The notes under the pieces were generated by a model. It was not told the DNA's origin, ran no database searches, and worked only from the letters and a program-made list of their open reading frames with translations. Shown piece after piece: positions 3,400 to 24,420 of a stretch of 64,000 nucleotides of DNA. Each line of letters begins with the position of its first letter. Position 1 is the stretch's first letter. Source of the DNA: a virus. The DNA lies in IMG/VR virus record IMGVR_UViG_3300045988_149625. The stretch is one strand, 5' to 3'. The position numbers and the translations under genes were made by a program.

Positions 3400-6300
3400 T
3401 TGGAGGGAGAAAAGATGGCTAATGCAGATGTAGGTAAACTAACAGCTAGTATAGCTTTAGATGTTAGTAATCTTACAAAAGGCGTGGCAAAGGCAGACCA
3501 GCAATTAGAGCAGCTTTCTACTTCATTCCAAAAATCGCAGAAAAAAGTAAATTCATCATTAAATAGTATAGATACAAAAGTGGCAATGACTGCCAAAAAT
3601 GTTATTGCTACAATTAGGGCGCAGACTAATCAGATAAATGCGCAGATGGCAACGCAAAGAAATTTGCTGACTAAGAGCTTAAACGCACAAACAAAAACTC
3701 TTGAATCTTCTATGCAACAGCAGATAAGGGCGACACAGAAGTTATCAACTGCTGTTGGGGTAAACACTTCTCTAGTATCTGCTAGTATAATGTCAATGAA
3801 TAAGAATGTTTCAGAGGCACTTAGTCAACTGACAAGTGCTTTTGAAAGAATGTCTACACGTTCTGGACAGAGTATGACAAATGCTAGAAAAACATTATCA
3901 CAGCAAGCTGTACAGATGGCAGGGGATTTAGAGAAGTTAAAAGTAAAAGCTGAACAAACACAAGTTACTCTGAATAATAGACAGACACAAAAATTAAATT
4001 ATAAAGCTACTAAAACGGACACTGCAAAACTTGATAGTAAGCTCTCTAGAATGGATACTGTTTCATTCACACCCACCATGAACACCTCTGGGGCAGTTTC
4101 ACAAGTTAATGGCTTGGAAAGTGCTTTAGCAAAAGCAAATACGCAAGCAGTTACTTTGAGCGGAAGTTTAAGTAAGGCTTGGGAAATTTATGAAACAATA
4201 TCTTTTAGTGCTTTTAAATTAGTCTATGGTATTGACGCTATTGGACAGGCAGTAACAGCATTGGTTTCACCTGGGTGGCAACTTGCAAATTTATTGGAAA
4301 CAGAACAAATAGGTATGGCAGGTATCCTAAGCTCCATGACTTCTTTACATGGTGAGAGCTTAAAGTGGAATAGCGCAATGTCCATGTCGAAATCTATTAT
4401 GAAAGACCTTACAGTTGAGGCAGCAAAAACTGCGGCAACAAGTGAGGAATTGATTACTACTTTTAGAGCACTGCTTGGTCCAGGTTTAGGGGCAGGAATG
4501 AGCGTTGAGGAGATTAAGCAAGCCACTGTTACAGGTGTAAATGCTGTTAAATCAATGGGACTTGATGGTAGACAGCTAGTACAGGAATTAAGGGATTTAG
4601 TTCAAGGTGGTATTCAAGCTTCAAGCTCAACTTTAGCAACAGCTTTAGGTTTAACTGATAAGGATATTAAGGCAGCTAAACAAAGTAGCGAAGGTTTATT
4701 TAAATTCTTAATGAAACGCCTAGAAGGTTTTAAACAATCTTCCACAGAGTATGGCAATACTTTAAGTGGTATGCTTGCACAGGTTAAGGAAGGTTATGCA
4801 CTTGCACAGGCACAAGCTGTTGAACCTTTACGTGATGCTGCTAAGGGCATCTTAAAAGATATAAGGGATGTTCTCTATACAAAAGATATGCAAATAAATC
4901 CTGCTTTTGTGGAAGGATTTAAGGAAGTTGGAAATTACGTTTTAAAAATTTGGGAAGCTTTAAAAGAGGTAGGCAGTAGTTTTATGCCTGCTATTGAAGC
5001 AGCTTTAAATATTGCAGTTCCTTTAGTTAAGTTAATAGTAGACAATCTTAAAGAGCTTACTATAATGTTCTTGACTTGGAACATTGCTAAAAAGGTAAAC
5101 ACTTTATTTCAGATTAAAGAAGCCACTGATAGTGTAACTAGCAGTCAGATAGCACAAAATAAAGCCATTGAGGAAGCAGAAGCAAAATACAAAAAGGCAC
5201 AGAACGCTGCAATGGATTATGCTAATAGTTCTGCTTTAAAGTTTAATGCGCATGTCGAAGCAAATAATCAGAGAATAAATACAAATGCTATAGCAGGGCA
5301 GGTTAAGATGCTAGGCTCTATGTCTAATGATAAGTCCTTACAACTTTGGGGAGAGGAACTAACTAAGTTGGAAGGTAAGTATCAAAAGCTTGGAGCATCT
5401 GCAAATGAAGCCGCTAAGTATGCAAATCTTGTAGCAGAAATTACTATAAAAGGCAGTAAAGAATCTGCAAAGGAACTTGATAGAGAAATAGAAAAACGTC
5501 TAGAAGTAGCACGTGCCGCTGAAAAAGAATATCAAGGACAAATTAAGCTTGAAGGCGAAAAGAAGAAAAACTTAGAATCTACAAACAAGCTAATGGGCAA
5601 ATTTAGTGTCTTTGCTAATGTGACAGGTGGCGTTGGAGATGCTTTAATGAGCCTAGGTTTAATTTTAGGACTAACCGCAGATAAAAACGATGAATCTGCT
5701 AGACAGACCGCCGCTAATATTGAGCAATTTGGCTTTTTAATGGCAATGGCAGGAAATTTAGCATCTACACTTACAAATACCCTAGTTCCTGCGATAATGA
5801 AAGCTGTTGAATGGTTTGCAAAGCTAAAACTTGTAGCTGCAATGGGTGGTGTGGGTGCTGCCTTAGGTAAAGGTGCTTTAGTGCTTTCACCTGCTTTAAT
5901 AGCCGCAGGTGCTGCAAACTACTTTAAAAAAGACGACGACCCTACCAAGATAAAATTTGACAGTTTTGAAAGTGTTGGCGCAGGGCTTTGGCGCAATTAT
6001 ATTTATAACCCAAAAGCTGAAAAAGAAAAATTGGAGGCAGCTGCTAAAGCGGCTGCGGATAAAAAAGCTGCTGATGAAAAAGAAATGCAAGAGCAGGCAG
6101 AAAAGATTAGGCAACAATTAGCAGGTTTAGAGCTTAAATTCCCTAAGAGTCCTACTGGCGGTGGTACTAAAGGAAGCGCCGCCGCAGGTAGGGCAGCAGA
6201 TAAGGCAGCTAGAAATCAAGCTAAAAACGCCTATAAAGTTTTAGAAACTGCTTTAAAAGCGGAAAAAGAAGCAATTAAACAACAGCAGTTACAACTTGAA

Positions 6301-9365: not shown

Positions 9366-9755
9366 ATGATTCCCAGAGAAGATGTAAAAGATTACATAGG
9401 ATTACCTTTTGTACAGGAAAAGGACGGATACGCTTGGGGATGTCTTGCTCCTTTTTATCAAATTCACCCAGAATTTGAGCATATTAAAGCATATAGGTAT
9501 CCTGTAAGTGAGGATGCTAATATGCTAAAGCATTTTAAAAGCCATTTTAAAGAAGTTGATTTAGAAGATGCCGTTTATGGGGATGTTTTGGTTATAAAAT
9601 TACCTATGAATCAATGGCATTTAGCAGTGTATTTAGGGGACGGCAAGTTAATGCACTGTACATTACATATAGACACAGAAATTACAAGACTTGAAAATTT
9701 TTCACAAGGCAGGATAAAGGGGGTATTTAGGTGTCAGGTGCAGCAGCAGCATTAG
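9366..9755 (+). CDS. NlpC/P60-family tail tip protein (lambda gpK-like)
   Basis: Cys/His/His pattern (GCLA...HLAVYLGDGKLMHC) is typical of NlpC/P60. Position fits gpK. Confidence 0.5.
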   Translation: MIPREDVKDYIGLPFVQEKDGYAWGCLAPFYQIHPEFEHIKAYRYPVSEDANMLKHFKSHFKEVDLEDAVYGDVLVIKLPMNQWHLAVYLGDGKLMHCTLHIDTEITRLENFSQGRIKGVFRCQVQQQH

Positions 9756-12742
9756 GTTGGGTAGGTATTGGTATTGCCCTTGTCAGTATGTTTGTAAGCC
9801 TTAGACAACAAAAGAAATTGTCTAAAAAAAAGGCTTCCTATACATACGGTGAGGGCGCACTGACTACCAACGTGAGCACCACAGACCCAGTACCTATTAT
9901 ATATGGTACTGTAAAAACTGCGGGAAACATGATTTATTCTAGATTAAGTAATGATAAAAAAGTGCTCTATAAATTAGTATCTGTTGCGGATGGTAAGATT
10001 AAGGGCATAAGGGATTTGCAATTTGATGATTTAGATGCAAATAGCAGTAAGTATGAGGGCGTTAGCTATAACTATTACTATGGTGATGGCGTACAAGAAA
10101 TAGATAGCCGTGTAATCGGAGATACACAAGAAGATAAAGCAATGCTAGTTGGCGGTTTAAAGTATTTGGCATACATAGCTTTACAGGCAAAGGCGAATGA
10201 AAATTTAAGCAGTAGTTTTAATGTTACTTGTTTAGTAGACGGTTCTATTGTAAAGATATATGAGAACGCAAACGATTTGACGCAGTATCGAGAGGAATGG
10301 ACGGATAATCCTGCATGGTGTGTTTTAGATTTTATGACACGTTATAATGGATGCGGAATGAGCCTTGATGAAATTGATGTTCAAAGTTTTATAGACGGAG
10401 CTAAATTCTTTAAAGAAAAGAATTATACATTAAATTTAGCTTTAGATGAACAAAGAAGCCGTTTAGAGTGGATACAGTATATGTTAAACTGTTGCCGTTC
10501 ACTGCTTATATATAGAGCAGGTAAATATAGTTTATTCGTGGAAAAGGCAGATGAGGTAGTTCAATCATATACTCCGAATGACATACACGATTTGAGTATA
10601 TGGTTCAGTCCTTTATCAGAAGTCCCAGATATTTATAGAATTACTTATATTGACCCTAAAAATGAGTGGGTAAAAGTAAATGCAGAAGCTTCTTTAAGCC
10701 CAGATAGCTATTTAAGAAAACAGCCAATGGTTGAAACTTTGGAGCTAATGGGTGTAACAACTTTTGACCAAGCAAGTAGATTAGCATGGTTCTACTTAAA
10801 TCAAGCACTGACTTGTCAAACCTACATTTCTTTTAAAACAGATAGACGCGCTTTAAATAGAACTGTTGGCGATGTAATAGAGGTTACAGACTATGTAACA
10901 GAGTTTCAAAAGAAAAAATTTAGAATAATAAAAATTGAAGATGAGCAAAATGAAAGTATAAAGCTTACATGTAGAGAGTACAACGAATCTATTTATAGTG
11001 AGCAACGTGGAGCGAGTGACCCTGTAATAAATGTTACAGAACTCACTGACCCGCAACAAACGCCGCCAGAAATAGTATATGTAGGAAATGAGCAAGACTA
11101 TTATATACTACCAGATAAAACGGTAGTAAGTAATATAATGTTAGATGTAATTTATACAGATTGGACTTATAATAAGAGTTTCAATGTTTCGTACCGTAAG
11201 AAGGATTCAGATAAGTGGCTTTTTGGTGGAACATTTGATGATGGTACTTACAGGGCTGTTATAGAGAATATGGAAATATACGAAACCTACATTTTCAGAT
11301 TTCAGAATATGAGTAAGTACGGCAAATTTTCAGCATATACTTATTCCCCAGAGATTTACATTACAGGTAAAAATGTAGCTCCTAATATGCCTTCTAATTT
11401 TCACGGTGAAGAGGTGGTAGGAGGTTTTAAACTTTATTGGGACGCTGGTGAAAAGGATGTAGATTATTATTTGTTATATTTAGGTTCTGTATCAGAAGAA
11501 GCTAAAATAGCACAAGTATATGGAACATCTTATTACTATCCTGCAGATGTTGGTGAATATACTTTTTATTTAGTAGCTGTTGATACAGCAGGTAATCGTT
11601 CCACTCCTGCAAGACTACTTTTAGAAATTTTATGCCCCTCAGACGTAAACGGCTTTGACTGTGTACAGAATGAACGCAACATAGAGTTTCATTGGAATTT
11701 AGTGGAAGGAGCTTCTTACTATGTACTTAAAGAGGGTGAGAACTGGGAATATGGTAATACCTTAGCAACAAGTTCTGGACATTTCTTTAGTTACCCATAT
11801 GCACAAGCAACAAGCACTACTTTTTGGATGAAAGCGTATACTGAATATGGCGTGCCTAGTGTAAACCCTGCATACTGTCAATTAAGTGTAGCATCTATAC
11901 CTAATAGGAACATGATTTTAGAATATGATGCAGTAGAAGATGGTTGGAGTGGTAAGAAATATAACATGCACGTAAATGCAGGTGGTATACAATTAGATGC
12001 AGGCAAGGTTTATGGGGACTATATATATCCTATGGAGTTAGACCAAGAGTATTGCGCAAGAAACTGGACAGAGAAAACTATCAAGCCAGTAAACGCGGAG
12101 TTAGAGCTTATGTGGAAGGATGCTCATTTTACATGGGCGAGTGCGAACGCTAAACGAAGAACTTGGTTTCCATTAGGCATAGATGATATATACAATTCAT
12201 GGACGGAAATTGCAATATATAATGAAGCAAGTAAAGAGGATATAGTCGAAAGAATGTCATTGAATGAAACACTTGTTTCAGATAGTGGTAAAAAGCCTGT
12301 AGGAAATGTTGGTACACCCACATATGGTGCAGGAAGATTTGAAAAAGGTCTTGTGTTAGATGGAAAGTGCCGTCCAAAATGGAAAAATTTGCCCATTGAT
12401 GATGCTTTCTCATTCAGTTTTAATCTTTACGTGCCTTTTGACAGTGTAAATAATTACTCGATTCTTACTTTAAGGAATGATTTAGGTGATTATTTATGGC
12501 TTCATTATAGAGAAGATGATGATATGTTTGTATGTACCTTTTCAGATGGTAGAGAGTATGAGTTAAAAGATTTTTCTGGAAAGGGCGATTATCTACATTT
12601 TATAATTTCACAAGGCGCAGGATATTTTACATTTGTTATATATGACGTAGGTTATGATTCCTATGTTATAAATAGAAAGAAAATTTCTACAATGAAGCGA
12701 TACACGCAGGTAGCTTTGTACGGTGATTTCAATAGGGAATAG
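9731..12742 (+). CDS. tail tip / host-specificity protein (gpI-like N-terminus fused to gpJ-like body)
   Basis: 1003 aa. Hydrophobic N-terminus followed by FN3-like repeats. Large central fibre gene after the M-L-K homologues. Confidence 0.55.
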   Translation: MSGAAAALGWVGIGIALVSMFVSLRQQKKLSKKKASYTYGEGALTTNVSTTDPVPIIYGTVKTAGNMIYSRLSNDKKVLYKLVSVADGKIKGIRDLQFDDLDANSSKYEGVSYNYYYGDGVQEIDSRVIGDTQEDKAMLVGGLKYLAYIALQAKANENLSSSFNVTCLVDGSIVKIYENANDLTQYREEWTDNPAWCVLDFMTRYNGCGMSLDEIDVQSFIDGAKFFKEKNYTLNLALDEQRSRLEWIQYMLNCCRSLLIYRAGKYSLFVEKADEVVQSYTPNDIHDLSIWFSPLSEVPDIYRITYIDPKNEWVKVNAEASLSPDSYLRKQPMVETLELMGVTTFDQASRLAWFYLNQALTCQTYISFKTDRRALNRTVGDVIEVTDYVTEFQKKKFRIIKIEDEQNESIKLTCREYNESIYSEQRGASDPVINVTELTDPQQTPPEIVYVGNEQDYYILPDKTVVSNIMLDVIYTDWTYNKSFNVSYRKKDSDKWLFGGTFDDGTYRAVIENMEIYETYIFRFQNMSKYGKFSAYTYSPEIYITGKNVAPNMPSNFHGEEVVGGFKLYWDAGEKDVDYYLLYLGSVSEEAKIAQVYGTSYYYPADVGEYTFYLVAVDTAGNRSTPARLLLEILCPSDVNGFDCVQNERNIEFHWNLVEGASYYVLKEGENWEYGNTLATSSGHFFSYPYAQATSTTFWMKAYTEYGVPSVNPAYCQLSVASIPNRNMILEYDAVEDGWSGKKYNMHVNAGGIQLDAGKVYGDYIYPMELDQEYCARNWTEKTIKPVNAELELMWKDAHFTWASANAKRRTWFPLGIDDIYNSWTEIAIYNEASKEDIVERMSLNETLVSDSGKKPVGNVGTPTYGAGRFEKGLVLDGKCRPKWKNLPIDDAFSFSFNLYVPFDSVNNYSILTLRNDLGDYLWLHYREDDDMFVCTFSDGREYELKDFSGKGDYLHFIISQGAGYFTFVIYDVGYDSYVINRKKISTMKRYTQVALYGDFNRE

Positions 12743-12753
12743 GAGAGGATTAA

Positions 12754-13200
12754 ATGAATACAGAAATGTCAGTTGTTGTTACAGGAATACTGTATGACGA
12801 GAATAATAATATTAAACAAAAGTTTGTAAAGCATAATTTGATTACAAGTGTAGGTTTTGATTTTGTAAGTAATTGCTTGGGTTCAACAACAAGACCAAAA
12901 CCTATTAGTCAAATTGGTGTAGGAACTAATAATACTGCCCCCGCTCTAGGGGATACAAACTTGAAAGCACTTAAACTTAAAAAGGCTTGTACCTACACTC
13001 ATACAGCAGGAACTACTTCCCTTGTATTCCAGACAGTTTTTGGTGCTGGGGAGGCAACGGGCGCTTTGGTGGAAGCGGGTATTTTTACAGGGGATGGTAT
13101 TTTATTTGATAGAGTTGTATACCCAGTAATTAATAAAGAAGATGTAGATACTTATGCAATGACTTTTGAAATTATTTTGAAGGAAGTATCAGTAGTATGA
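12754..13200 (+). CDS. hypothetical tail/fibre-region protein
   Basis: 148-aa ORF with an RBS (ggagaggattaaATG). Operon context. Confidence 0.3.
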   Translation: MNTEMSVVVTGILYDENNNIKQKFVKHNLITSVGFDFVSNCLGSTTRPKPISQIGVGTNNTAPALGDTNLKALKLKKACTYTHTAGTTSLVFQTVFGAGEATGALVEAGIFTGDGILFDRVVYPVINKEDVDTYAMTFEIILKEVSVV

Positions 13201-13937
13201 GTTTTACGATTAGAGAGGAAATTCGTGGCATAAAATTAAAAGAAGTCGCATTTCCTATCAGCCATTTTAAAGGGAAACGCTTAAAAGATTTTCGAGGAAC
13301 AGCTTACATTGCAGACTGGAAAGATTTACTAAGCTTCGACCTAGATGCTACAACTGTAAATGCTTATTCTAGAAAATTTAGTACAGCATTGGGGATACAA
13401 GAGGCACATAATAAGAAAACTATAAAGCATATTAAAGAGATATTTGGAATTGGTGTATTAAAAATAAATAATGCACAACAAGTATTAAGTGATTTACGCT
13501 TCTATGATAAGGTTCTAAATGAAACAAATTTTGATGAAACATTTACACCTTTTGGTTATAGTAAGTGGAAGAAAATGATTACAGGCGATTATATATATCA
13601 AAAAGCATTATGTAAATATGTAATGCAAGCTAGTCTTAATGCAGATAGACCTAATGCAAGGGCGTATACGCATAAAGTAGATGTGCCAGACCTTTTGGCT
13701 CAAGGTACGGTAGAATTAACAGTGAGTAATCAACCACGGGAGGTACACTTTCCTAAGGATAGGACTTTCCATATTGTACCAGAAATGAATATATCTATTA
13801 AGAGTTACAGTGGCACAGGTGCAACACCTTTAGTGTTGGCTTACAATGTTACTACAAAAGGTTTTATGGTGTCTATGAAAAACGAAGATGGCGGCTATGT
13901 TGAGGGGACAATAACTTATGCAGCCCGCGGATATTGA
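13197..13937 (+). CDS. hypothetical tail/fibre-region protein
   Basis: 246-aa ORF overlapping upstream by ATGA. Confidence 0.3.
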   Translation: MSFTIREEIRGIKLKEVAFPISHFKGKRLKDFRGTAYIADWKDLLSFDLDATTVNAYSRKFSTALGIQEAHNKKTIKHIKEIFGIGVLKINNAQQVLSDLRFYDKVLNETNFDETFTPFGYSKWKKMITGDYIYQKALCKYVMQASLNADRPNARAYTHKVDVPDLLAQGTVELTVSNQPREVHFPKDRTFHIVPEMNISIKSYSGTGATPLVLAYNVTTKGFMVSMKNEDGGYVEGTITYAARGY

Positions 13938-14553: not shown

Positions 14554-15357
14554 ATGGGTGTAACAGAGCATGTTTTAAACATACAAAGTAGTAATAATAA
14601 AAAAGTAGTTCCTTTATATGATACACCTACTTGTAGCTATACAGGAAGGTCTTTACCAATTAAATTAGCTAATGGTTCAACTGTGTATGCACCTCTAGGT
14701 GTTACAGATGATTTGTATGGAACACAGCTTTGGGTAGAAATTGATGGAGCGTCTTATAGAGTGGTTGAGCAAAGTGTGCAAGGTATTCAAGGTGTAAACT
14801 TTGATAAGACTGTAAAAATAGAATTTAGTGGTAGCGGTGAGCGCACAGCTAAATATGATACTTTTTATTTTGTAGCACCAAGAAGAACCAAGTTTCATTA
14901 TAAAAGTATGGTTAATTACGGACAAACTGGTTGGGGATACAGCTCTGATAGGTGGCAACGTAGTGATATATGGATAAACTTAGATGGAAATCTACTTGTT
15001 AAGAAAACTTTTAGACGCAGTGCAGGCATTAATTGGAAAACTCTATATGATGGGGACATTGAATTAGATGCAGGAACACATCGAATGGAACTTTGGCTTT
15101 TGGGGCAAGGCTCTAGTAAAGATAGTCATTTAACTGTTTGTTATGCTTGGAACAATGATTTGTTAATGTCTGGACAACAATTTGTCCAATATTCAAGTCC
15201 AGGTACGTATGACTTCACAGTTCCTAAGGGTGTGGAAAGCATTACCATCGTGACTGTTGGTGGTGGCGGTGGTGGAGCAGGGTATGGATACACCCCCCAA
15301 GAAGATAGTGGTAGCGGCCCCAGTCAAGGTGAAGGTAGTGGAGGCGAAGGAGCATGA
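14554..15357 (+). CDS. glycine-rich tail fibre protein (N-terminal part)
   Basis: ...FTVPKGVESITIVTVGGGGGGAGYGY... is a typical phage-fibre Gly-rich motif. Ends GEGSGGEGA*. Confidence 0.45.
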   Translation: MGVTEHVLNIQSSNNKKVVPLYDTPTCSYTGRSLPIKLANGSTVYAPLGVTDDLYGTQLWVEIDGASYRVVEQSVQGIQGVNFDKTVKIEFSGSGERTAKYDTFYFVAPRRTKFHYKSMVNYGQTGWGYSSDRWQRSDIWINLDGNLLVKKTFRRSAGINWKTLYDGDIELDAGTHRMELWLLGQGSSKDSHLTVCYAWNNDLLMSGQQFVQYSSPGTYDFTVPKGVESITIVTVGGGGGGAGYGYTPQEDSGSGPSQGEGSGGEGA

Positions 15358-15836
15358 GTAGTTATCCTTATACACAAGTTATTGTAGATGCTAAAGGCAC
15401 AGATGGTGGAAATTCTAAGGCTTCTTTAAATGGAGCAGATATAATTCTTGCAACTGGGGGCAGTGGTGCAAAATATAAAAGAACTCGTACCCATGTTAAT
15501 TGGCACAGCTCTACTGAGTCCGAAGAAAAGCAGGTAGGTAGGGGTGGTACACCAAATGGCATAGATGGCACTTATTCAGTATCTGGCACAAAGGGGTATG
15601 ATATTCGTCCAGAGGTTACTAGAGGTTCTTATGGTAGCGGGGGAGGTTGTTCAAATACTAATACAGTTGTATATCCTGTATCTGGGGGCAGTGGTGGTAT
15701 TAATATTGTCACCATTCCTGTTAAGGAAGGGGATAGATTACAAATCACTGTTGGAAGCGCGGGTGCAGGTGGTGGAATTGGTTTAGCAGGAAATGCAGGA
15801 GCGGTAGCATTATGGTATTACAAATTGGGAAACTAA
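15354..15836 (+). CDS. glycine-rich tail fibre protein (second part; possibly same gene as 14554-15357 via frameshift)
   Basis: GGSGAKY...SYGSGGGCSN...VSGGSGGINIVTIPV...VGSAGAGGGIGLAGNAG. ATGA overlap with the preceding Gly-rich ORF. Confidence 0.4.
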   Translation: MSSYPYTQVIVDAKGTDGGNSKASLNGADIILATGGSGAKYKRTRTHVNWHSSTESEEKQVGRGGTPNGIDGTYSVSGTKGYDIRPEVTRGSYGSGGGCSNTNTVVYPVSGGSGGINIVTIPVKEGDRLQITVGSAGAGGGIGLAGNAGAVALWYYKLGN

Positions 15837-17035
15837 TAGATAATATATTAGTGGCAAAATTTATAACAAATAATACATTAAAAGAGTTTAAAGATTTAGT
15901 TGGGGAAGGAGATTATGTGGATATTACAGGGGTCGACATTCAAGAGGGTGACAAATTTGTTAATGGGGATGCTATTCATTGTGAGGGCGATTCATTATCC
16001 AAGGAAGGTGTAAAAGCACTTTATCTGATGCTAGGCAGTGCGTGTAATATGTCTTGCAGACATTGTACACAAACTCCTATTAAAGGTAATGTTGCTTTTC
16101 CTACTACTGAGTTAAGTAAGGATGTACTAGATTTTATAGTAAATTGGGATAAAAATGGCGGTGGAAGGTTATATTTTTGGGGCGGTGAACCTTTACTTTA
16201 TTGGAATACAATAAAGAAACTTATAGAAGAGTTTGAAAAAATGGGAATGAGAAATACTTCTTATCGCATTTTCACCAATGGTCTATTACTTTCAAATTCC
16301 ATTGTAGACTTTTGTAACAAACATAATATATGGGTAATTATGAGTTATGATGCACCTAACCCCTTAGCTGCAAGAAACGCCATGCCGTCAGAGAGAAATA
16401 TAGAAGCTTTCTTGTTGGCAGAAAAAAGAACAGTAAATGGTGTATACAATGCCTTAAACTGTGATATGGTAGCTGCTTTTAAATACTTGGAGTCAAAATT
16501 TCCTAATACTGAGGTAACTCTAGGGTTTATAAATGTATTATGGGATATACCAAAAGACTTATACGCTTTTGGAAAAGGCGAAGTAAGAAAGGCGGTAAAA
16601 GATTTATTTGAATATTATAAAGAAACAAGGGATTCAAATGTACACAGGTGGTTTGAAACTAAACTTAGAAGAGGGAATTACTTTTCCATTGAAGAATTTA
16701 TGCTTTCCCCATTTCCTCCCTGTGCACCTGGGCGTATCTCTTTATCTATAGATTTTGCAGGTAATATAATAAGATGCCACAATGACGATAAAGTGGTTGC
16801 AAATATTAAAGATGATTATTCAGATATATTAAAAGCACATGAAATGGAGTGGCTAAAGTTATTGCCAAGAAATTGTGCAGAATGTGAATGTCTACCTTTG
16901 TGCAGGTCAATTTGTCCAATAGCCTATAAGAAAGAAAACAAAGAAGAATTTGTACAATGTGATTATATAAGGGAGTTTTTTAGCGCGGTGCAGGAATGTG
17001 CCGATGATTTTTGGAGAATGGAAGGTGAGATGTAA
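15812..17035 (+). CDS. radical SAM enzyme with C-terminal SPASM domain (peptide/protein-modifying maturase-like)
   Basis: CNMSCRHC (CxxxCxxC) at about residue 78 and GGEPLL (SAM-binding). C-terminal Gx4C (GNIIRC) plus CAECECLPLCRSIC (Cx2Cx5Cx3C) plus a final Cys form a SPASM signature. An ~75-aa N-terminal extension precedes the cluster, as in RRE-containing sactisynthases. Confidence 0.7.
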   Translation: MVLQIGKLIDNILVAKFITNNTLKEFKDLVGEGDYVDITGVDIQEGDKFVNGDAIHCEGDSLSKEGVKALYLMLGSACNMSCRHCTQTPIKGNVAFPTTELSKDVLDFIVNWDKNGGGRLYFWGGEPLLYWNTIKKLIEEFEKMGMRNTSYRIFTNGLLLSNSIVDFCNKHNIWVIMSYDAPNPLAARNAMPSERNIEAFLLAEKRTVNGVYNALNCDMVAAFKYLESKFPNTEVTLGFINVLWDIPKDLYAFGKGEVRKAVKDLFEYYKETRDSNVHRWFETKLRRGNYFSIEEFMLSPFPPCAPGRISLSIDFAGNIIRCHNDDKVVANIKDDYSDILKAHEMEWLKLLPRNCAECECLPLCRSICPIAYKKENKEEFVQCDYIREFFSAVQECADDFWRMEGEM

Positions 17036-18970
17036 ATGGCAAGCTTTCATAACTGGACAGGTGATGAATTAATTGATACACAAGTCCCACAGTTTTTAAA
17101 TGAAGATAATGCAGCAACACAGGAGAAATTAGACACTAAATTTAATAAATCCTTAGATATAGCAGAAGCCTCAGACTTAAACAATTTTAAGGATGAGGGG
17201 TTCTACTGCTGTAATTCTAATTCTCGTGCTGAAACTATTTTAAATTGTCCTACTAATTATGCTTTCGGTTTAATGGTATGGGGTAAAGGCGAAATAGTCT
17301 ATCAAGAAGTGCGCGAATTTAACAGAGGCTCTAACCAAGATTACAATAACTGTTGGAGAAGAAGTTATTCTGGGGGCGGACAAGGTGTGTGGTCTAACTG
17401 GCAGAAAGTGGCTTATGCAGCTACTACTTTAGCAGAATACGGAATAACAGACGGTATGGGCAAGAACGCCACAAACAGTGTGGGTGTGACAGATATTATT
17501 AAAAGAAGTATTAATACGTCGTACTTGCGTTTAACAGGTGGCAATACATTTGATAAAAGTGCAACTCTTCAACTCTGCGGAGGTACTTATGCAACAAACG
17601 CAGGACAGTTTTTATTAAAAGCAGCAGATTCAGCACACTCAGCAACTCTTTCAGGTAATCCTTCTGGGCTACTTAAATGGAATGATAAAAATATAGTACG
17701 TTCAGTAAATAATTCTGTTGCAGATGAACATGGTAATGTAACTTTACTGTTCCCCGACTCAGATGTAACGCAGGAAGGCGCGGGGTACTGGAAGCCTAAT
17801 GAATCAGTACAAGAAGGGGATATACGTTATGTGTATGGTAGAGGAAACACAGGTGTTGTTTTAAAATGTGTGAAAGCAGGAATAACAGGAGCAGAATTAC
17901 CAGATTTAGAGGCTGCTTCAAATGCTGTGCAATTAGTAACAGAAACTACTACTGAGGTAAAACCTTTTGATATATTGGATTATGTATCACAAGTACCAGA
18001 ATATTACACACGCCCTAGTTTGTATACAGTTTCAAAAAAATCTATAACTATACCTAAGGGGTTACGTGTAAGAATTGGTGATAAAGGTTATGAGAGTGTT
18101 AGTACAACTACATTAAGCACTACATCTTTGGGAAGTTTGGCAGCAAAAGATGTTTATATATATGCTTGTGCTCCTATTACTTTATCTACTGAGCCAATAT
18201 TTGTACTTTCATTAAATAGTACAGTACCTAGTGGGTATACCGCAGAAAACAGTCGCAAGATTGGCGGTTTTCATTGCTTATGTGCAGATGTTGGTACAAT
18301 AAGTGGACATACTTTAAGTGGTTATGTAGCAGGTGACATACTTCCTGCTTCTGCATGGGATTTAATTCATCGTCCACGATGTTCCCCCGAAGCAATGGTG
18401 TATTGTGATACGGTGGACTTTTGGGTCGATATATATTTGGATAGTTGGGATGGTAACAAATTAGTATCTGTATACAAAGGTGTTACAGCAGACGGAACTT
18501 CCACTAAAAAGTTTCATGGTGAGCTTTTTGTAGATGAGCTTGCAAAATTGAATAAAAGACTACCTCCAAGAAGAGTATTTCAAGCAATAATGAAAGGCTC
18601 AAATGAACGCACCAATGTTAAAGGTTCGAAAGACGTAAATACTACTGGTGGTAATGTAGATACAGCAGGTCGAAGAATGATAAGTAATTATGGTTGTGAA
18701 GATGGCTGCGGTTTCTTGTGGCAATGGTCTGATGAACTAGGTTTTGCAGGTGGTAGTGCATGGACAGATTCAGTATATAATTCAAGTGTCGATTCTGAAA
18801 GAATTGGACAAACTTATGGAACTTTGTATAGAGCTGCGCTGGGCGGTTGCTGGGTTCACGGCGGTTCTTGTGGTTCGCGGTCGGTGTTTTGCAGCCATTC
18901 CTCGGCTCTTGTCAGTGCTTATTTTGGCGGTCGCGGCGCTTGCGAGCCGAAGGTCGCAAAGTTCTATTAG
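17036..18970 (+). CDS. DGR target protein: tail fibre/receptor-binding protein with C-terminal C-type-lectin-fold variable region
   Basis: 644 aa. Its C-terminus (…GGCWVHGGSCGSRSVFCSHSSALVSAYFGGRGACEPKVAKFY) is encoded by the variable repeat (VR), which matches the downstream template repeat (TR) except at TR adenines. ATGG overlap with the rSAM gene. Confidence 0.75.
   Translation: MASFHNWTGDELIDTQVPQFLNEDNAATQEKLDTKFNKSLDIAEASDLNNFKDEGFYCCNSNSRAETILNCPTNYAFGLMVWGKGEIVYQEVREFNRGSNQDYNNCWRRSYSGGGQGVWSNWQKVAYAATTLAEYGITDGMGKNATNSVGVTDIIKRSINTSYLRLTGGNTFDKSATLQLCGGTYATNAGQFLLKAADSAHSATLSGNPSGLLKWNDKNIVRSVNNSVADEHGNVTLLFPDSDVTQEGAGYWKPNESVQEGDIRYVYGRGNTGVVLKCVKAGITGAELPDLEAASNAVQLVTETTTEVKPFDILDYVSQVPEYYTRPSLYTVSKKSITIPKGLRVRIGDKGYESVSTTTLSTTSLGSLAAKDVYIYACAPITLSTEPIFVLSLNSTVPSGYTAENSRKIGGFHCLCADVGTISGHTLSGYVAGDILPASAWDLIHRPRCSPEAMVYCDTVDFWVDIYLDSWDGNKLVSVYKGVTADGTSTKKFHGELFVDELAKLNKRLPPRRVFQAIMKGSNERTNVKGSKDVNTTGGNVDTAGRRMISNYGCEDGCGFLWQWSDELGFAGGSAWTDSVYNSSVDSERIGQTYGTLYRAALGGCWVHGGSCGSRSVFCSHSSALVSAYFGGRGACEPKVAKFY
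18831..18945 (+). repeat. DGR variable repeat (VR), ~115 bp, with GC-rich IMH at its 3' end
   Basis: Aligns base-for-base with 19047-19161. About 24 mismatches, every one at a TR adenine. Ends in a shared ggcggtcgcggcgcttgcga; downstream gcgagccgaaggtcgca forms an imperfect GC hairpin. Confidence 0.8.
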
Positions 18971-19046
18971 AACTAGGTATACGGCTACATGAAGTTGTTA
19001 AGGAACACGAAGTAGTCTTGAATATACTGGGTTGTGGTTGTTAAAA

Positions 19047-19161
19047 GAGCTAAACTAGGCGGTAACTGGGATAACAGCAGTTCTTGTAGTTCGCAGTCAG
19101 TGAATTGCAACAATTCCTCAGCTAATGTCAATGCTAATTATGGCGGTCGCGGCGCTTGCGA
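19047..19161 (+). repeat. DGR template repeat (TR), A-rich (AAC/AAT codons)
   Basis: gagctaaactaggcggtaactgggataacagcagttcttgtagttcgcagtcagtgaattgcaacaattcctcagctaatgtcaatgctaattatggcggtcgcggcgcttgcga. Identical to the VR except where the TR has A. Confidence 0.8.
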
Positions 19162-19416
19162 TACGGAGAGAGCTATTCCTTCGGCTGAACCACAATCCAT
19201 TCTAGCAGAGAAATACTGTATAGAAAAACACACAACAGGAGTATAGAAGGGCTAGTAGTGTAAACGAACGTCATTCTATAAAACTCCGTATCTTTAAATA
19301 AAGGAGAAATAAACTTGAAAAGAATTGGGAATTTATGAACTAAAATTATAGATAAAGAAAATATTAAGGAGAGTATTTTAAGCGCTGCAAAACATAAGAA
19401 AAAGCGCCCTGCGGTA

Positions 19417-20709
19417 ATGAAGGTACTCAATAATATAGACGAATATGTAGAAAAGATTCACAAATTGTTAGTAAACAAGGAGTATAAAGTTTCGGAATAT
19501 TATATAAAAGCAATTTATGAGCCTAAGCTAAGGCTTATTTACATATTACCCTTTTATCCAGATAATATAATATTTCACTGCATAATGAGGGTATTAGAGC
19601 CTATATGGGACAGTAGGTTTATTTATGATACTTATTCATGCAGGAAGGGTAAGGGGCAACATAAAGGAATGTTAAAGAGCACTATATACGTAAAGAATTA
19701 CAAATACTGCTTAAAATGTGATATAAGTCAGTTTTACCCAAGCCTTAATCATAGAATACTAAAGGAAAGTTTCCGTTGGAAAATCAAAGATAAGGACGTA
19801 TTGGAGCTACTTGACTTAATAGTAGATAGTGTTTCTGTGCGGGAAAGGAATCTAGATTTTTTAAAGTGCTGCAAGGCAAGTGATAAACATATGATGGAAC
19901 AGAAGCTTCAAACATTAAAAGAAGAGTTCCCAGAAGGAGATTTCGGTGTGCCTATTGGTAATTATCCTTCACAATGGTTCGGAAACCTTTATATGAACCC
20001 TTTAGATAACCTTATTAAGTACTGTTTCCATGCAAAAGCATATGTAAGATACTGCGACGATTTTGTTGTTTACAGTAATGATAAAAAGTGGTTACATAGT
20101 GTAGCTGCGGAGATAGAGAACTTTTGTAAGGAAAGATTAAAATTAAAGATGAGTAAGTGTCGGGTATTTCCTACGAAGTGTGGAGTAGATTTCTTAGGGT
20201 ATAAAGCATTTCCCAGTGGTAAGATTCTTTTGCGTAAAAGGACAGCAAAAAGAGTCCATAAACAAATAAAAGCATTATGGAAAGAGCTATCTTATGGGAA
20301 CTATGAACAAATGCTTTCTAAAGTGGGAAGCAGAATGGGGTATTTAAGGTACGCTAAAAGTTATAATTTTAGATTACAAATAAAGATTAAAGAGTTGGAA
20401 AGGGAACTAAAAAGGAGGATTAGTATGGTAGGTTATCCAAAAAATTTAAGCACAAAAGAAGATTATGAGTACGTGAGAACACATTTCCCTAAAAGTGATT
20501 GGCAGAAAGACTTTGAAAGTCTTTTACCTCGCAAGGAATGGTTCTTCATTGAAGAAACTAAGGTTAATAAAAAAGAAGATGCTACTCATAAAACAGAACC
20601 CTCTGACGATGAAGGGGTATTCTATCGTTATGAATTGAGGGGGGTAAGTAAGGCAGCAGAAATTGGATATACGGTAGAAGAAGTAGAGAAGATTCTAAGG
20701 AGTGAATAA
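19417..20709 (+). CDS. DGR reverse transcriptase
   Basis: YCDDFVV (YxDD) and IGNYPSQWFGNLYMNP (DGR-type SQ motif). N-terminal YEPKLRLI is typical of DGR RTs. The conserved sequence continues in frame upstream to 19339 and the RBS-linked TTG at 19315, but an in-frame TGA lies at 19336-19338. Confidence 0.85.
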   Translation: MKVLNNIDEYVEKIHKLLVNKEYKVSEYYIKAIYEPKLRLIYILPFYPDNIIFHCIMRVLEPIWDSRFIYDTYSCRKGKGQHKGMLKSTIYVKNYKYCLKCDISQFYPSLNHRILKESFRWKIKDKDVLELLDLIVDSVSVRERNLDFLKCCKASDKHMMEQKLQTLKEEFPEGDFGVPIGNYPSQWFGNLYMNPLDNLIKYCFHAKAYVRYCDDFVVYSNDKKWLHSVAAEIENFCKERLKLKMSKCRVFPTKCGVDFLGYKAFPSGKILLRKRTAKRVHKQIKALWKELSYGNYEQMLSKVGSRMGYLRYAKSYNFRLQIKIKELERELKRRISMVGYPKNLSTKEDYEYVRTHFPKSDWQKDFESLLPRKEWFFIEETKVNKKEDATHKTEPSDDEGVFYRYELRGVSKAAEIGYTVEEVEKILRSE

Positions 20710-20711
20710 TA

Positions 20712-21719
20712 ATGGTAGTAGATAATACAGTACAGTGGTTACAGCTTAATTTAAAAGAAACAGGTTTGCCAGTAGGGTTTGAATACTTTACAATGAACCC
20801 AAACATACCCGCAGGAAGTTTGCCGCTACAAGGTGGTCTTTATAGCAGATTAGCATATTCAGACCTTTGGGAATGGGTACAGAAACAGACAGGATATTTA
20901 AAGGCTGAGTCAGAGTGGCAGGAACTTGCGGTCAGTAATAGTGGAAATGTGCCGTTTTACAGTAGCGGTGATGGTAGCACTACATTTAGAGTTCCTGCGC
21001 TGAAATGCTGGGTGCGGGGTGCTAGTAGCATTAGTGAGGTTGGTGGCTATTTGACTGCTGGATTGCCGAATATTACAGGAAGTATGGGACTAGCTGGTGC
21101 TCCTATATCAAATGCTAATAATAGAAACTTATATCCAAGCATTCTAAATGGTGTGTTTGAGATACAAGAAGGGCAAGAAGAACATTGGGCGGGTGAGCAT
21201 AAGGCAAATACTTTTTCAAAAGATGCGATTATATTTAACGCTTTTCTTTCTAATCCCATCTACGGTGCATCCGATACTGTACAACCACCATCCATCGTAG
21301 GCTTATGGTGTGTAAAGGCTTATGGCACTGTTACAAATGTTGGTAGCACGGATGTGGCTAATTTAGCACAAGGACTAACACAAACTGAAACACGTATAAG
21401 TGCATTGGAAACAAACAAGGTTGACAAGGCTGGTAATGCATGGGTGGTAGAATCTTACCGCAACGGCACTGAATGGTATAGAGTATGGTCAGATGGTTGG
21501 GTAGAACAAGGTGGATATTTTGAAAAGAAAAGAGACACGGCTTTAACTGTTACATTTTTGAAGCCTTACGTAGATAATGAATATACGTTTGCTTGTATGC
21601 TAGCTAGAGAAAATGGTTCTACACCAAAACTAACCACAAAGACTACAACAGGTTTTTCTATGTACACTGCCTCATGGGACTATGATATGTATTGGCGCAC
21701 AGAAGGTAAGGGGGCTTAA
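20712..21719 (+). CDS. tail fibre protein with phage tail-collar domain
   Basis: NIPAGSLPLQGGLYSRLAYSDLWEWV matches the tail-collar motif (iPaGw..cdG...Yp.Lw). Confidence 0.5.
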   Translation: MVVDNTVQWLQLNLKETGLPVGFEYFTMNPNIPAGSLPLQGGLYSRLAYSDLWEWVQKQTGYLKAESEWQELAVSNSGNVPFYSSGDGSTTFRVPALKCWVRGASSISEVGGYLTAGLPNITGSMGLAGAPISNANNRNLYPSILNGVFEIQEGQEEHWAGEHKANTFSKDAIIFNAFLSNPIYGASDTVQPPSIVGLWCVKAYGTVTNVGSTDVANLAQGLTQTETRISALETNKVDKAGNAWVVESYRNGTEWYRVWSDGWVEQGGYFEKKRDTALTVTFLKPYVDNEYTFACMLARENGSTPKLTTKTTTGFSMYTASWDYDMYWRTEGKGA

Positions 21720-23994: not shown

Positions 23995-24420
23995 ATGGCT
24001 TACTTAAATGCTATTAACTCTGTCACTCAGACAGTGGTAGCTGATGGGTATTTAGTATACGACACAAAAGCTGTAAGCGGTTGCAATAGTTGTTGCAATC
24101 AAGGAATTTTATTTACAGCAGGTAGTAATACAATTACTTTACGTAAAGCAGGAACTTACTTAGTCACTGTTAATGCGAATGTTACACCTACTGCGGCGGG
24201 GGATATTTCCCTACGCTTGGTTAAGAACGGTGTAGCAGTCCCTGGTGCTAGTGCTACTGCGACAGGTGTGGTAGCTACTACATTCCCTGCAAGTTTTACC
24301 ACTTTGATTACGGTTCTACCTTCTTGCAAAGCTATCAATAATGTAGCTTCACTGCAAGTACAGTTGACAGCTGCGGGAACGGTAACAAGCACTTCTTTCA
24401 CCGCTGTAAAAATTGCGTAG
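23995..24420 (+). CDS. hypothetical beta-rich protein (possible TNF-like/BclA-C-like fold)
   Basis: 141 aa, T/A/V-rich. RBS aaggagggataaggaATG. Confidence 0.3.
   Translation: MAYLNAINSVTQTVVADGYLVYDTKAVSGCNSCCNQGILFTAGSNTITLRKAGTYLVTVNANVTPTAAGDISLRLVKNGVAVPGASATATGVVATTFPASFTTLITVLPSCKAINNVASLQVQLTAAGTVTSTSFTAVKIA

Follow-up and report, generated by a model that had tools for sequence, protein, structure and literature searches.

A stretch of viral DNA 64,000 nucleotides (nt) long (IMG/VR record IMGVR_UViG_3300045988_149625, referred to hereafter as the window) carries at 17036-20709 a diversity-generating retroelement (DGR) that we take, with a probability of about 90%, to be a functional element of the BPP-1 type in a siphovirus-like human-gut phage of about 100 kb. 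A first-pass annotation had described it as a complete system for diversifying a receptor-binding protein of the Mtd kind. The adenine specificity of the repeats and the homologies of the target and the reverse transcriptase (RT) bear this out, and the word complete holds for the target, the template repeat (TR) and the RT but not beyond them. That interpretation was incomplete, not wrong; it missed a TGA at codon 8 of the RT, a module fused to the RT and a structured RNA spacer. We establish here the anatomy of the element, the family membership of its target and RT, its adenine specificity and the transfer of sequence from the TR to the variable repeat (VR) since two strains diverged. The order of molecular steps is taken by analogy from BPP-1 biochemistry: the adjacent RT would copy into cDNA an RNA that includes the structured spacer (19162-19314) as well as the TR (19043-19161), misincorporating opposite template adenines, and the mutagenised cDNA would replace the VR (18827-18945). 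About 20 codons in the ligand-binding face of the C-type-lectin domain of the Mtd-like protein would thereby be rewritten, with a change of host range as the expected result. The core finding is ordinary, since Mtd-diversifying DGRs are the founding example of the class and common in human-gut phages; the details bear on how DGRs without the accessory protein Avd work, given that the RT of BPP-1 (bRT) is inactive without it.

Ungapped comparison of VR 18831-18945 with TR 19047-19161 (offset 216 nt) gave 92 identities in 115 positions. The TR base was A at all 23 mismatches (A to G at 12, A to T at 7 and A to C at 4), which altered 23 of the 30 adenines of the core TR. Mismatches were thus confined to TR adenines, and the hypergeometric probability that 23 of 23 would land on 30 adenines is 2.2e-18. 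The first-pass annotation had counted about 24 differences, all at TR adenines; the number is 23 in the core and the specificity stands. Extending the repeat 5' to 18827/19043 added two A to T differences, for 25/25 at TR adenines, while 18826 was the first mismatch with a counterpart other than A. The VR reaches at least to 18828, a position that differs between strains. An independent repeat search of the window recovered the same pair, and the TR pattern with every A replaced by N matched twice in the whole 64 kb, at the VR and the TR, with 0 matches expected by chance. The TR therefore has a single target in the window, and no second target was found there by this search.

The placement of TR adenines is suited to changing protein sequence. 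Read in the VR frame, they fall on codon positions 1, 2 and 3 in the ratio 14:14:6, and the codons include eight AAY, in keeping with the AAC/AAT density noted earlier, and two AAA. The amino acid was changed in 18 of the 21 altered VR codons. The theoretical repertoire, computed from the TR, is 4^33-34 DNA sequences and about 2e16 peptides. The VR peptide reads GGCWVHGGSCGS...GGRGAC and has the Cys/Gly-rich tail that had been described for it. As reported, 76 nt separate the stop of the target gene from the TR; an open reading frame (ORF) at 19034-19246 is a mere mirror, in the TR, of the VR reading frame.

The VR lies where it had been placed, at the end of a fibre-like protein of 644 amino acids (aa). 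Residues 329-442 of this protein matched Pfam PF21916 (mtd_2nd; E 7.2e-22, 78.3 bits, cutoff 24.6), and in a phmmer search residues 338-638 aligned with residues 76-377 of BPP-1 Mtd (PDB 1yu0/2iou, E 4e-18). The homologous part (residues ~338-638, nt ~18047-18949) covers the intermediate and C-type-lectin domains, and the VR aligns residue by residue with the VR in the C-type-lectin domain of the Mtd crystal structures, suggesting that this region takes the same fold. Among PHROGs the target matched phrog_11262 (E 1.3e-57), annotated as 'tail protein'. Its N-terminal ~330 aa are unrelated to Mtd: nothing aligned with Mtd residues 1-75, which form the Mtd N-terminal domain, and the one match was to phrog_3971, of unassigned function. 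These alignments mark the target as a true sequence homologue of Mtd with a different N-terminal part of 330 aa, and this homology is a stronger identification than a generic resemblance to C-type-lectin folds.

The RT contains EPKLR, with the equivalent of bRT R74, the DGR signature IGNYPSQ and YCDD, and also YCDDF and IGNYPSQWFGNLY. In DGR RTs the signature [I/V/L]GxxxSQ stands in place of QGxxxSP (PMC7826257). The best PDB match was 8ub7_A (E 3.6e-34, 122 bits), which is BPP-1 bRT, as the numbering of I181, Q187, D215 and D216 agrees with PMC7826257 and with the structure paper on bioRxiv. Its rivals in the PDB were the group II intron GsI-IIC RT (E 4e-15) and a retron-type RT (E 5e-11), so that by E value the RT is about 19 orders of magnitude nearer to bRT than to the best group II intron RT. 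The DGR-type RT with YCDDF and SQ motifs was thus correctly recognised at first sight, and the grouping with intron or retron RTs, named then as the outcome that would speak against it, was not what we found. The RT also matched phrog_1423 (E 8e-91) and Pfam RVT_1. Scores for other classes fell below their cutoffs: 104.8 bits against the group II intron model TIGR04416 (cutoff 300), 53.9 against retron St85 (235), 44 against Drt2 (390) and 40 against Drt3a (200). The best PADLOC matches were a generic RT (111 bits) and RT_UG17 (95 bits), both lower than the 122 bits obtained with the single bRT sequence; neither NCBIfam nor PADLOC contains a DGR RT model. An Rfam search found no intron or retron RNA family at 18700-19500 or in related loci. 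Together these comparisons place the RT in the DGR clade. Relative to bRT it has an insertion of ~30 aa before IGxxxSQ. The ratio of non-synonymous to synonymous substitution rates (dN/dS) in the RT core was 0.075 against locus L023 and 0.144 against L020, two of some 40 related loci (L001 onwards) used below.

The first-pass annotation had proposed looking in related genomes for VR differences restricted to TR adenines, and L023 made this possible. This strain, ~92% identical to the window and retrieved through the invariant sequence 3' of the VR, provides the one informative strain pair for the window lineage. Its VR differed from its own TR at 23 positions, all 23 at TR adenines. The VRs of the window and L023 differed at 19 sites, of which 18 have A in both TRs. 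The nineteenth, 18899, is T in the window and G in L023 and in each strain matches the strain's own TR (19115, T/G); the TR repeats (19043-19161) differed at three sites. Because this site tracks its own TR in both strains, TR-to-VR transfer took place after the strains diverged, and the pattern is the signature of unidirectional transfer since that split.

Relatives gave a similar picture. Among the Avd-less Sutterella prophages L039-L042, VRs differed at 10-16 of 145 positions (7-11%) and TRs at 0-1, with differences of ~1.5-8% elsewhere, and all 12 VR differences between L039 and L040 were at TR-A sites. Read from these sequences, related Avd-less cassettes are demonstrably active in nature. 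The window phage itself was found in human-gut metagenome assemblies, in copies (e.g., L021 and L022) identical to the window, and the 90% cluster of its target has a single member. Among GenBank phages there was no DNA match and no module, and the nearest RT was at most 41% identical. Contigs broke at the VR/TR in two independent assemblies (the end of L001 and the start of L020, IMGVR_UViG_3300045988_143506), and L022 starts at window position 19143. Such breaks are consistent with repeat-induced assembly breaks or with micro-heterogeneity of the VR in the population.

The shared GC-rich 3' end of the repeats, which had been likened to the initiation of mutagenic homing (IMH) site, was confirmed: the last 21 nt (18925-18945 and 19141-19161, ...GGCGGTCGCGGCGCTTGCGA) are the same in both copies. 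Homology stops after ...TTGCGA, where the VR continues with GCCG and the TR with TACG. This junction (GA/GCCG in the VR, GA/TACG in the TR) is kept in most related loci examined, L011 and L019 being deviant. In L023 and L020 the TR copy of the block carries 2-6 substitutions that are not in the VR, an asymmetry like that of IMH and IMH*. The imperfect GC hairpin first seen after the VR was also found. Its stem of 6+1 base pairs (bp) contains one G.G mismatch, its loop is CGAA, and the end of the VR lies inside the hairpin. Folding of 18925-18985 as DNA gave -13.7 kcal/mol (z -2.5), with 3 of 200 shuffles equally good. The hairpin was also scored as terminator-like, had no equivalent at the TR copy and was not clearly conserved among related loci.

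Between the TR and the RT gene lies what is, from the aligned sequences, a conserved, covarying and family-specific structured RNA absent from Rfam. Alignment of 11 spacers, taken from loci whose RTs are only 37-47% identical, showed conserved blocks (GA/UACG, GGCUG, AAAAUAC, GGYUAGUAG and CGAAMG), and RNAalifold predicted three helices with compensatory changes in 10 of 15 pairs. Paired spacer cells amounted to 88.5%, compared to 65% in shuffles (0 of 500 as good) and 32-52% in slid-partner controls, and the covariation score was 0.583 versus 0.219. Because the alignment register is off at helix 2, its position in the window was taken from a single-sequence fold. The best that Rfam offered was a weak RT-14 match at 19179-19280, below threshold (24 bits, gathering threshold 48, E 0.65), and the 11 related loci gave nothing at gathering thresholds. 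BPP-1 has a 140-nt spacer (Sp) at the corresponding position, comparable to the structured ~150 nt here; Sp RNA primes and positions cDNA synthesis (bioRxiv 10.1101/2023.10.23.563531).

Likenesses to BPP-1 (mtd-avd-TR-brt) thus extend over an Mtd-homologous target with the VR in the last ~40 codons of a C-type-lectin domain, a TR between target and RT on the same strand that is AAY-rich and adenine-specific, an RT homologous to bRT (IGxxxSQ, the R74 equivalent and YxDD) and a GC-rich 3' end of VR and TR. The window differs in lacking avd, with only the short gap described above between target and TR; in an IMH-like block that is the same in VR and TR; in a hairpin that overlaps the VR end and has a CGAA rather than a GRNA loop; in the unrelated 330-aa part that replaces the Mtd N-domain; and in an RT with UGA as codon 8, the ~30-aa insertion and a C-terminal module of 94 aa. 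The absence of Avd had been noted, and neither Avd (PF05635) nor HRDC was found at E <= 0.01 among 82 window ORFs of 60-230 aa, Avd being poorly conserved and ~36 kb of the genome lying outside the window. Avd is no universal feature of DGRs, as ~26-29% lack it (PMC5758913). Known Avd-less groups are Architecture A, TR-RT without an accessory gene (75 of 372 DGRs), and Lineage 3 (both Wu et al. 2018, PMC5758913), and Avd-less DGRs also occur in Faecalibacterium phages such as the Mtd-type Epona (PMC5883640). The window shares with these the lack of avd and the order target-TR-RT and, with Epona, the setting of a gut Firmicutes phage with an Mtd/FGE-type target. Homing that is independent of Avd, or that uses 'another small protein', has already been proposed (PMC5758913, PMC5883640).

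Two small proteins of this cassette are concrete candidates for such a mechanism. The RT ORF of the window continues for 94 aa past the end of related RTs, into an acidic module that retains its own Shine-Dalgarno (SD) sequence (AAAGGAGGA, 20411-20419) and ATG. The module has no Pfam or PHROG family and was absent from 50,697 deposited phage genomes; a confident AlphaFold2 (AF2) model (pLDDT 84.8) had no fold match in PDB or BFVD. It belongs to a family of ~100-aa proteins for which we counted 322 clusters at the 90% identity level and, among 1.84 billion proteins, 468 representatives at the 50% level. In most loci the module is free-standing downstream of the RT. The other candidate accessory protein is orfA (~95 aa, basic, isoelectric point (pI) ~8.8, phrog_19665, weak OB-fold-like Pfam hints). 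Most Mtd-type cassettes without Avd encode it between RT and module (e.g., L007 8471-8749, L024 4708-4989, L034 4196-4483), and the window lacks it. The window and ~40 related loci define a conserved cassette of Mtd-like target, TR, spacer RNA, RT, and orfA and/or module. Target, TR, RT, orfA and module occur, never with Avd, in at least 18 independent loci, from Veillonellaceae, Megasphaera, Faecalibacterium, Lachnospiraceae, Clostridiales and Sutterella prophages. L013-L017 have orfA without the module, and the window lineage and L011/L019 have the module without orfA. Wu et al. 2018 (PMC5758913) described CH1 accessory genes, which encode acidic proteins of 160-169 aa (pI 4.7) and are confined to DGRs that have none of avd, HRDC and MSL. 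Compared by description only, the module family resembles CH1 in being small, acidic (pI 4.8-5.1), motif-less and restricted to Avd-less cassettes, but its members are shorter, at 94-113 aa. We found in PMC5758913 and PMC5883640 no account of a conserved pair of orfA and acidic module, of fusions between RT and module or of an RT with a conserved in-frame stop, and our literature search did not find the orfA/module pair, recurrent RT-module fusion, a conserved UGA at Trp8 or a covarying spacer described.

Whether the module serves the RT or the fibre is a close question; by our rough estimate neither role reaches even odds, with that of an RT accessory placed first. It is quite possible that the module, and orfA in the relatives, are partners of the Mtd-type fibre, for example in assembly or as chaperones, whose genes normally follow the fibre gene, with the TR and RT placed in between, and that fusion to the RT is an accident of tight packing. 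When 11 species genomes were sampled without bias, an Mtd-like gene adjoined the module in 11 of 11 and an RT did so in 10 of 11. L034 (GCA_965307425.1, 2794-4806), L045 and L004 have lost the TR and RT and kept the module, L034 and L045 with orfA as well. The module's own Met is kept in every fusion, with its own SD in the window, and L013-L017 have active-looking DGRs without the module. Against a partnership with the fibre, the module is fused to the RT C-terminus in at least six separate RT lineages, including a triple RT-orfA-module fusion (P0122), yet was never seen fused to a fibre gene. In the window lineage the fusion has been maintained over a dS of ~0.5, with a module dN/dS of 0.079 against L023 (a 3-nt indel being handled), and every cassette examined has orfA and/or the module while none has Avd. 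The module may prove to be a fibre-associated protein after all. In L034, L045 and L004 the C-terminus of the Mtd-like gene is still VR-like and has kept its ...SEPRV junction motif; these genes resemble one-time DGR targets that are now 'frozen'.

The start of the RT needed revision. In place of the called start, ATG 19417, we assign TTG 19315, 8 nt downstream of a strong SD (AGGAG) that is kept in L020 and L023. The frame 5' of ATG 19417 reads TTG-KRIGNL-TGA-TKIIDKENIKESILSAAKHKKKRPAV-M, and the N-terminus so obtained, KRIGNL*TKIIDKENI, aligns with MKRxGNLWxKIxxxxNL... of related RTs. Codon 8 is Trp (TGG) in nine RT lineages of relatives and Tyr or Phe in the remainder. The TGA at this codon is common to the window, L020 and L023 (dS 0.09-0.46), with differing synonymous and non-synonymous changes around it, and therefore predates their split; no further stops or frameshifts were found in the RT core of these three strains. 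Since the TGA is ancestral and homing followed the strain split, RT must have been made despite it.

Near-cognate decoding of UGA as Trp is the most economical, and from the sequences the most likely, explanation for RT synthesis. Translation would start at TTG 19315 behind the strong SD and would have to pass the UGA at codon 8, which low-level near-cognate decoding as Trp would do while restoring the ancestral residue; the leaky codon would keep the RT scarce. The A1 protein of Qbeta is an example of UGA read-through. UGA is known to be leaky and decoded as Trp, with ~6% read-through in wild-type B. subtilis (PMC7918605), and the putative case here shares with known ones a UGA at an ancestral Trp and downstream codons under purifying selection. 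No stimulatory RNA structure or suppressor tRNA was identified for the TGA, and tRNA searches of the window and of 4.6 kb past its 3' end were negative, ~30 kb of the genome being outside the search. Recoding under code 4 or 25 was ruled out, as TGA is the normal stop of 23 of 100 window genes and read-through adds little ORF length on the + strand. A +1/-1 frameshift at TTA-TGA-A was also ruled out, as the +1 frame meets TAA two codons later. Related RTs have AT-rich leaders without an SD, and low RT expression may be a common theme among them. Two of them carry stops of their own, TGA at codon 63 in L002 (CGA in the sister contig L005) and TAG at codon 290 in L038; unlike the window TGA, each is known from a single contig, and they look like decay or putative read-through. 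Elsewhere in the window two ORF pairs (13197-13937/13947-14552 and 54905-55090/55109-55576) share a frame and are separated only by TGA and a few codons, probably by coincidence. A conserved UGA at a Trp codon of an RT under strong purifying selection is a clean natural candidate for control of expression by read-through in a bacterial retroelement.

Several observations weigh against a fully working element of the BPP-1 type. Codons 9-34 of the RT are less constrained than the rest, with three synonymous and four non-synonymous codon changes against L023, and the TGA could mean that only a truncated RT is made from ATG 19417, or hardly any RT. bRT is inactive without Avd (bioRxiv 10.1101/2023.10.23.563531). 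The IMH and IMH* counterparts are identical in the window strain, whereas in BPP-1 they differ and the difference sets directionality. The hairpin after the VR departs from the consensus published for phage DGR hairpins/cruciforms, which are GC-rich, with a 7-10 bp stem and a 4-nt GRNA loop, 4-34 bp downstream of the VR (PMC3240598). Finally, all contigs with the exact target share one VR, although these are probably re-assemblies of one sample.

A different route to an active RT would be internal initiation at ATG 19417 (Met35), with the first 34 residues lacking and TTG...TGA a throttling upstream mini-ORF of seven codons. We think this unlikely, though it is the main alternative to read-through. 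Gene callers chose this ATG, codons 9-34 evolve faster than the core, and the N-terminal extension of the BPP-1 RT contacts Avd, which is absent here, so the extension could be dispensable. However, ATG 19417 has no SD while the TTG has the conserved one, codons 9-34 contain no stop in any of the three strains and share recognisable homology with the N-terminal ends of Avd-less relatives, and the stop falls precisely on the conserved Trp codon.

That the element is a recently inactivated relic, with an RT knocked out by the TGA and a VR that preserves earlier diversification unchanged, seems improbable. An in-frame stop seven codons after a strong SD and start would be expected of a relic, as would the single VR of the contigs with the exact target, and decay is seen in related loci, where besides the stops of L002 and L038 the RTs of L004 and L018 are truncated and L034 and L045 have lost TR and RT. 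Yet the TGA has persisted in three strains in which the RT core evolves at a dN/dS of 0.075-0.144 and has no other lesion, and its place is precisely that of a Trp codon, Trp being what near-cognate decoding of UGA inserts. The VR of L023 carries L023's own TR substitution, so that homing occurred after the TGA arose; a TGA shared by the strains and homing after their split imply retrohoming in a genome that already carried it. An ordinary segmental duplication under diversifying selection, next to the RT of a group II intron, a retron or a defence system, is effectively refuted. For it there are only sub-threshold or generic matches to group II intron, retron and DRT models in NCBIfam and PADLOC, neither of which contains a DGR model. 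Against it, the mismatches all lie at TR adenines (P 2e-18), the TR is constant while the VR varies between strains, the RT has the DGR signature and bRT as its best PDB match but stays far below the group II and retron cutoffs, and no intron or retron RNA family was found.

Returning to the functional DGR, we offer a more speculative proposal, which we hold to be doubtful as a whole: the Mtd-type Avd-less DGRs of gut phages might form a distinct mechanistic class in which the acidic module and/or the basic orfA replace Avd, and in the window lineage the RT-module protein might be throttled by the leaky UGA at Trp8 behind a strong SD. If so, the window would hold a minimal DGR of two proteins, the target and the RT-module, that could be reconstituted, and so compact a fusion could simplify engineered DGR mutagenesis. 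The positions of the features are collected in Table 1.

Table 1. Positions in the window of the DGR, its parts and adjacent tail genes
Feature	Position	Strand	Basis or remark
J-like central tail fibre	9731-12742		upstream of target; phrog_31, E 8e-58
Mtd-like receptor-binding tail protein, 644 aa	17036..18970	+	Pfam, PDB and PHROG matches
VR	18827..18945 (conservative core 18831-18945)	+	codons ~598-637 of the 644-aa target; mismatches all at TR adenines
IMH-like GC-rich block TGGCGGTCGCGGCGCTTGCGA	18925..18945	+	identical in VR and TR
Imperfect hairpin TTGCGA-G-C[CGAA]G-G-TCGCAA	18940..18959	+	from last 6 nt of VR into VR-specific flank
TR	19043..19161	+	34 adenines, 28 at codon position 1 or 2 of the VR frame
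TR-RT spacer, 153 nt	19162..19314	+	conserved structured RNA (predicted)
Spacer helix 1	19164-19168 with 19179-19183		
Spacer GGCTGA	19183-19188		
Spacer helix 2	~19199-19207 with 19215-19225		single-sequence fold
Spacer A-rich AAAAACAC	19224-19231		
Spacer helix 3	19244-19248 with 19274-19278		encloses GGCTAGTAG (19250-19258) and CGAACG (19265-19270)
SD AGGAG	19302-19306		
DGR RT core, 370 codons	19315..20424	+	bRT match, PHROG, RVT_1, motifs
In-frame TGA, RT codon 8	19336..19338	+	context TTA-TGA-A
Acidic module, 94 aa, pI 5.1	20425..20709	+	in-frame fusion to RT C-terminus
Fibre gene	20712-21719		downstream of DGR

The target belongs to a siphovirus tail module, in which it follows the tape measure gene, the J-like central fibre and other fibre genes. 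The lambda-like tail tip of the first description is represented by this J-like gene, and its description as a low-GC phage agrees with a GC content of 35.9%. The N-terminal domain encoded by the fibre gene downstream of the DGR recurs in several fibre genes of the same loci. A radical SAM/SPASM enzyme is encoded on the + strand at 15812-17035, abutting the start of the gene for the Cys-rich Mtd-like target. It has a CxxxCxxC motif, a Pfam Radical_SAM match and an NCBIfam SPASM domain above cutoff; the best full-length likeness, below cutoff, was to thioether peptide maturases of the PapB/SCIFF type. Two Gly-rich proteins are encoded upstream of it (14554-15357 and 15354-15836). The enzyme has a counterpart of 95% amino acid identity in sister strain L001 and in no other Mtd-DGR locus, and it was ruled out as a member of the DGR cassette, being restricted to the window phage lineage. 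A peptide-maturase-type enzyme in a tail-fibre module is unusual.

In L003/L006 this recurrence of the fibre N-terminal domain takes the form of a 70-nt direct repeat (5898-5967 and 9562-9631) on either side of the whole DGR cassette, through which recombination might swap the cassette or remove it. The window phage also encodes (e.g., at 23995-24420) QueC of the 7-deazaguanine pathway, SpoVS, the anti-restriction protein ArdA, a family A DNA polymerase and a protein with a BclA_C domain. QueC suggests DNA modification, and SpoVS and BclA_C point to a spore-forming Firmicute as the host. In L035, 2.4 kb at 11399-13767 (1.0-3.4 kb past the 3' end of the window) is devoid of called genes and tRNA in a genome that is otherwise densely coding.

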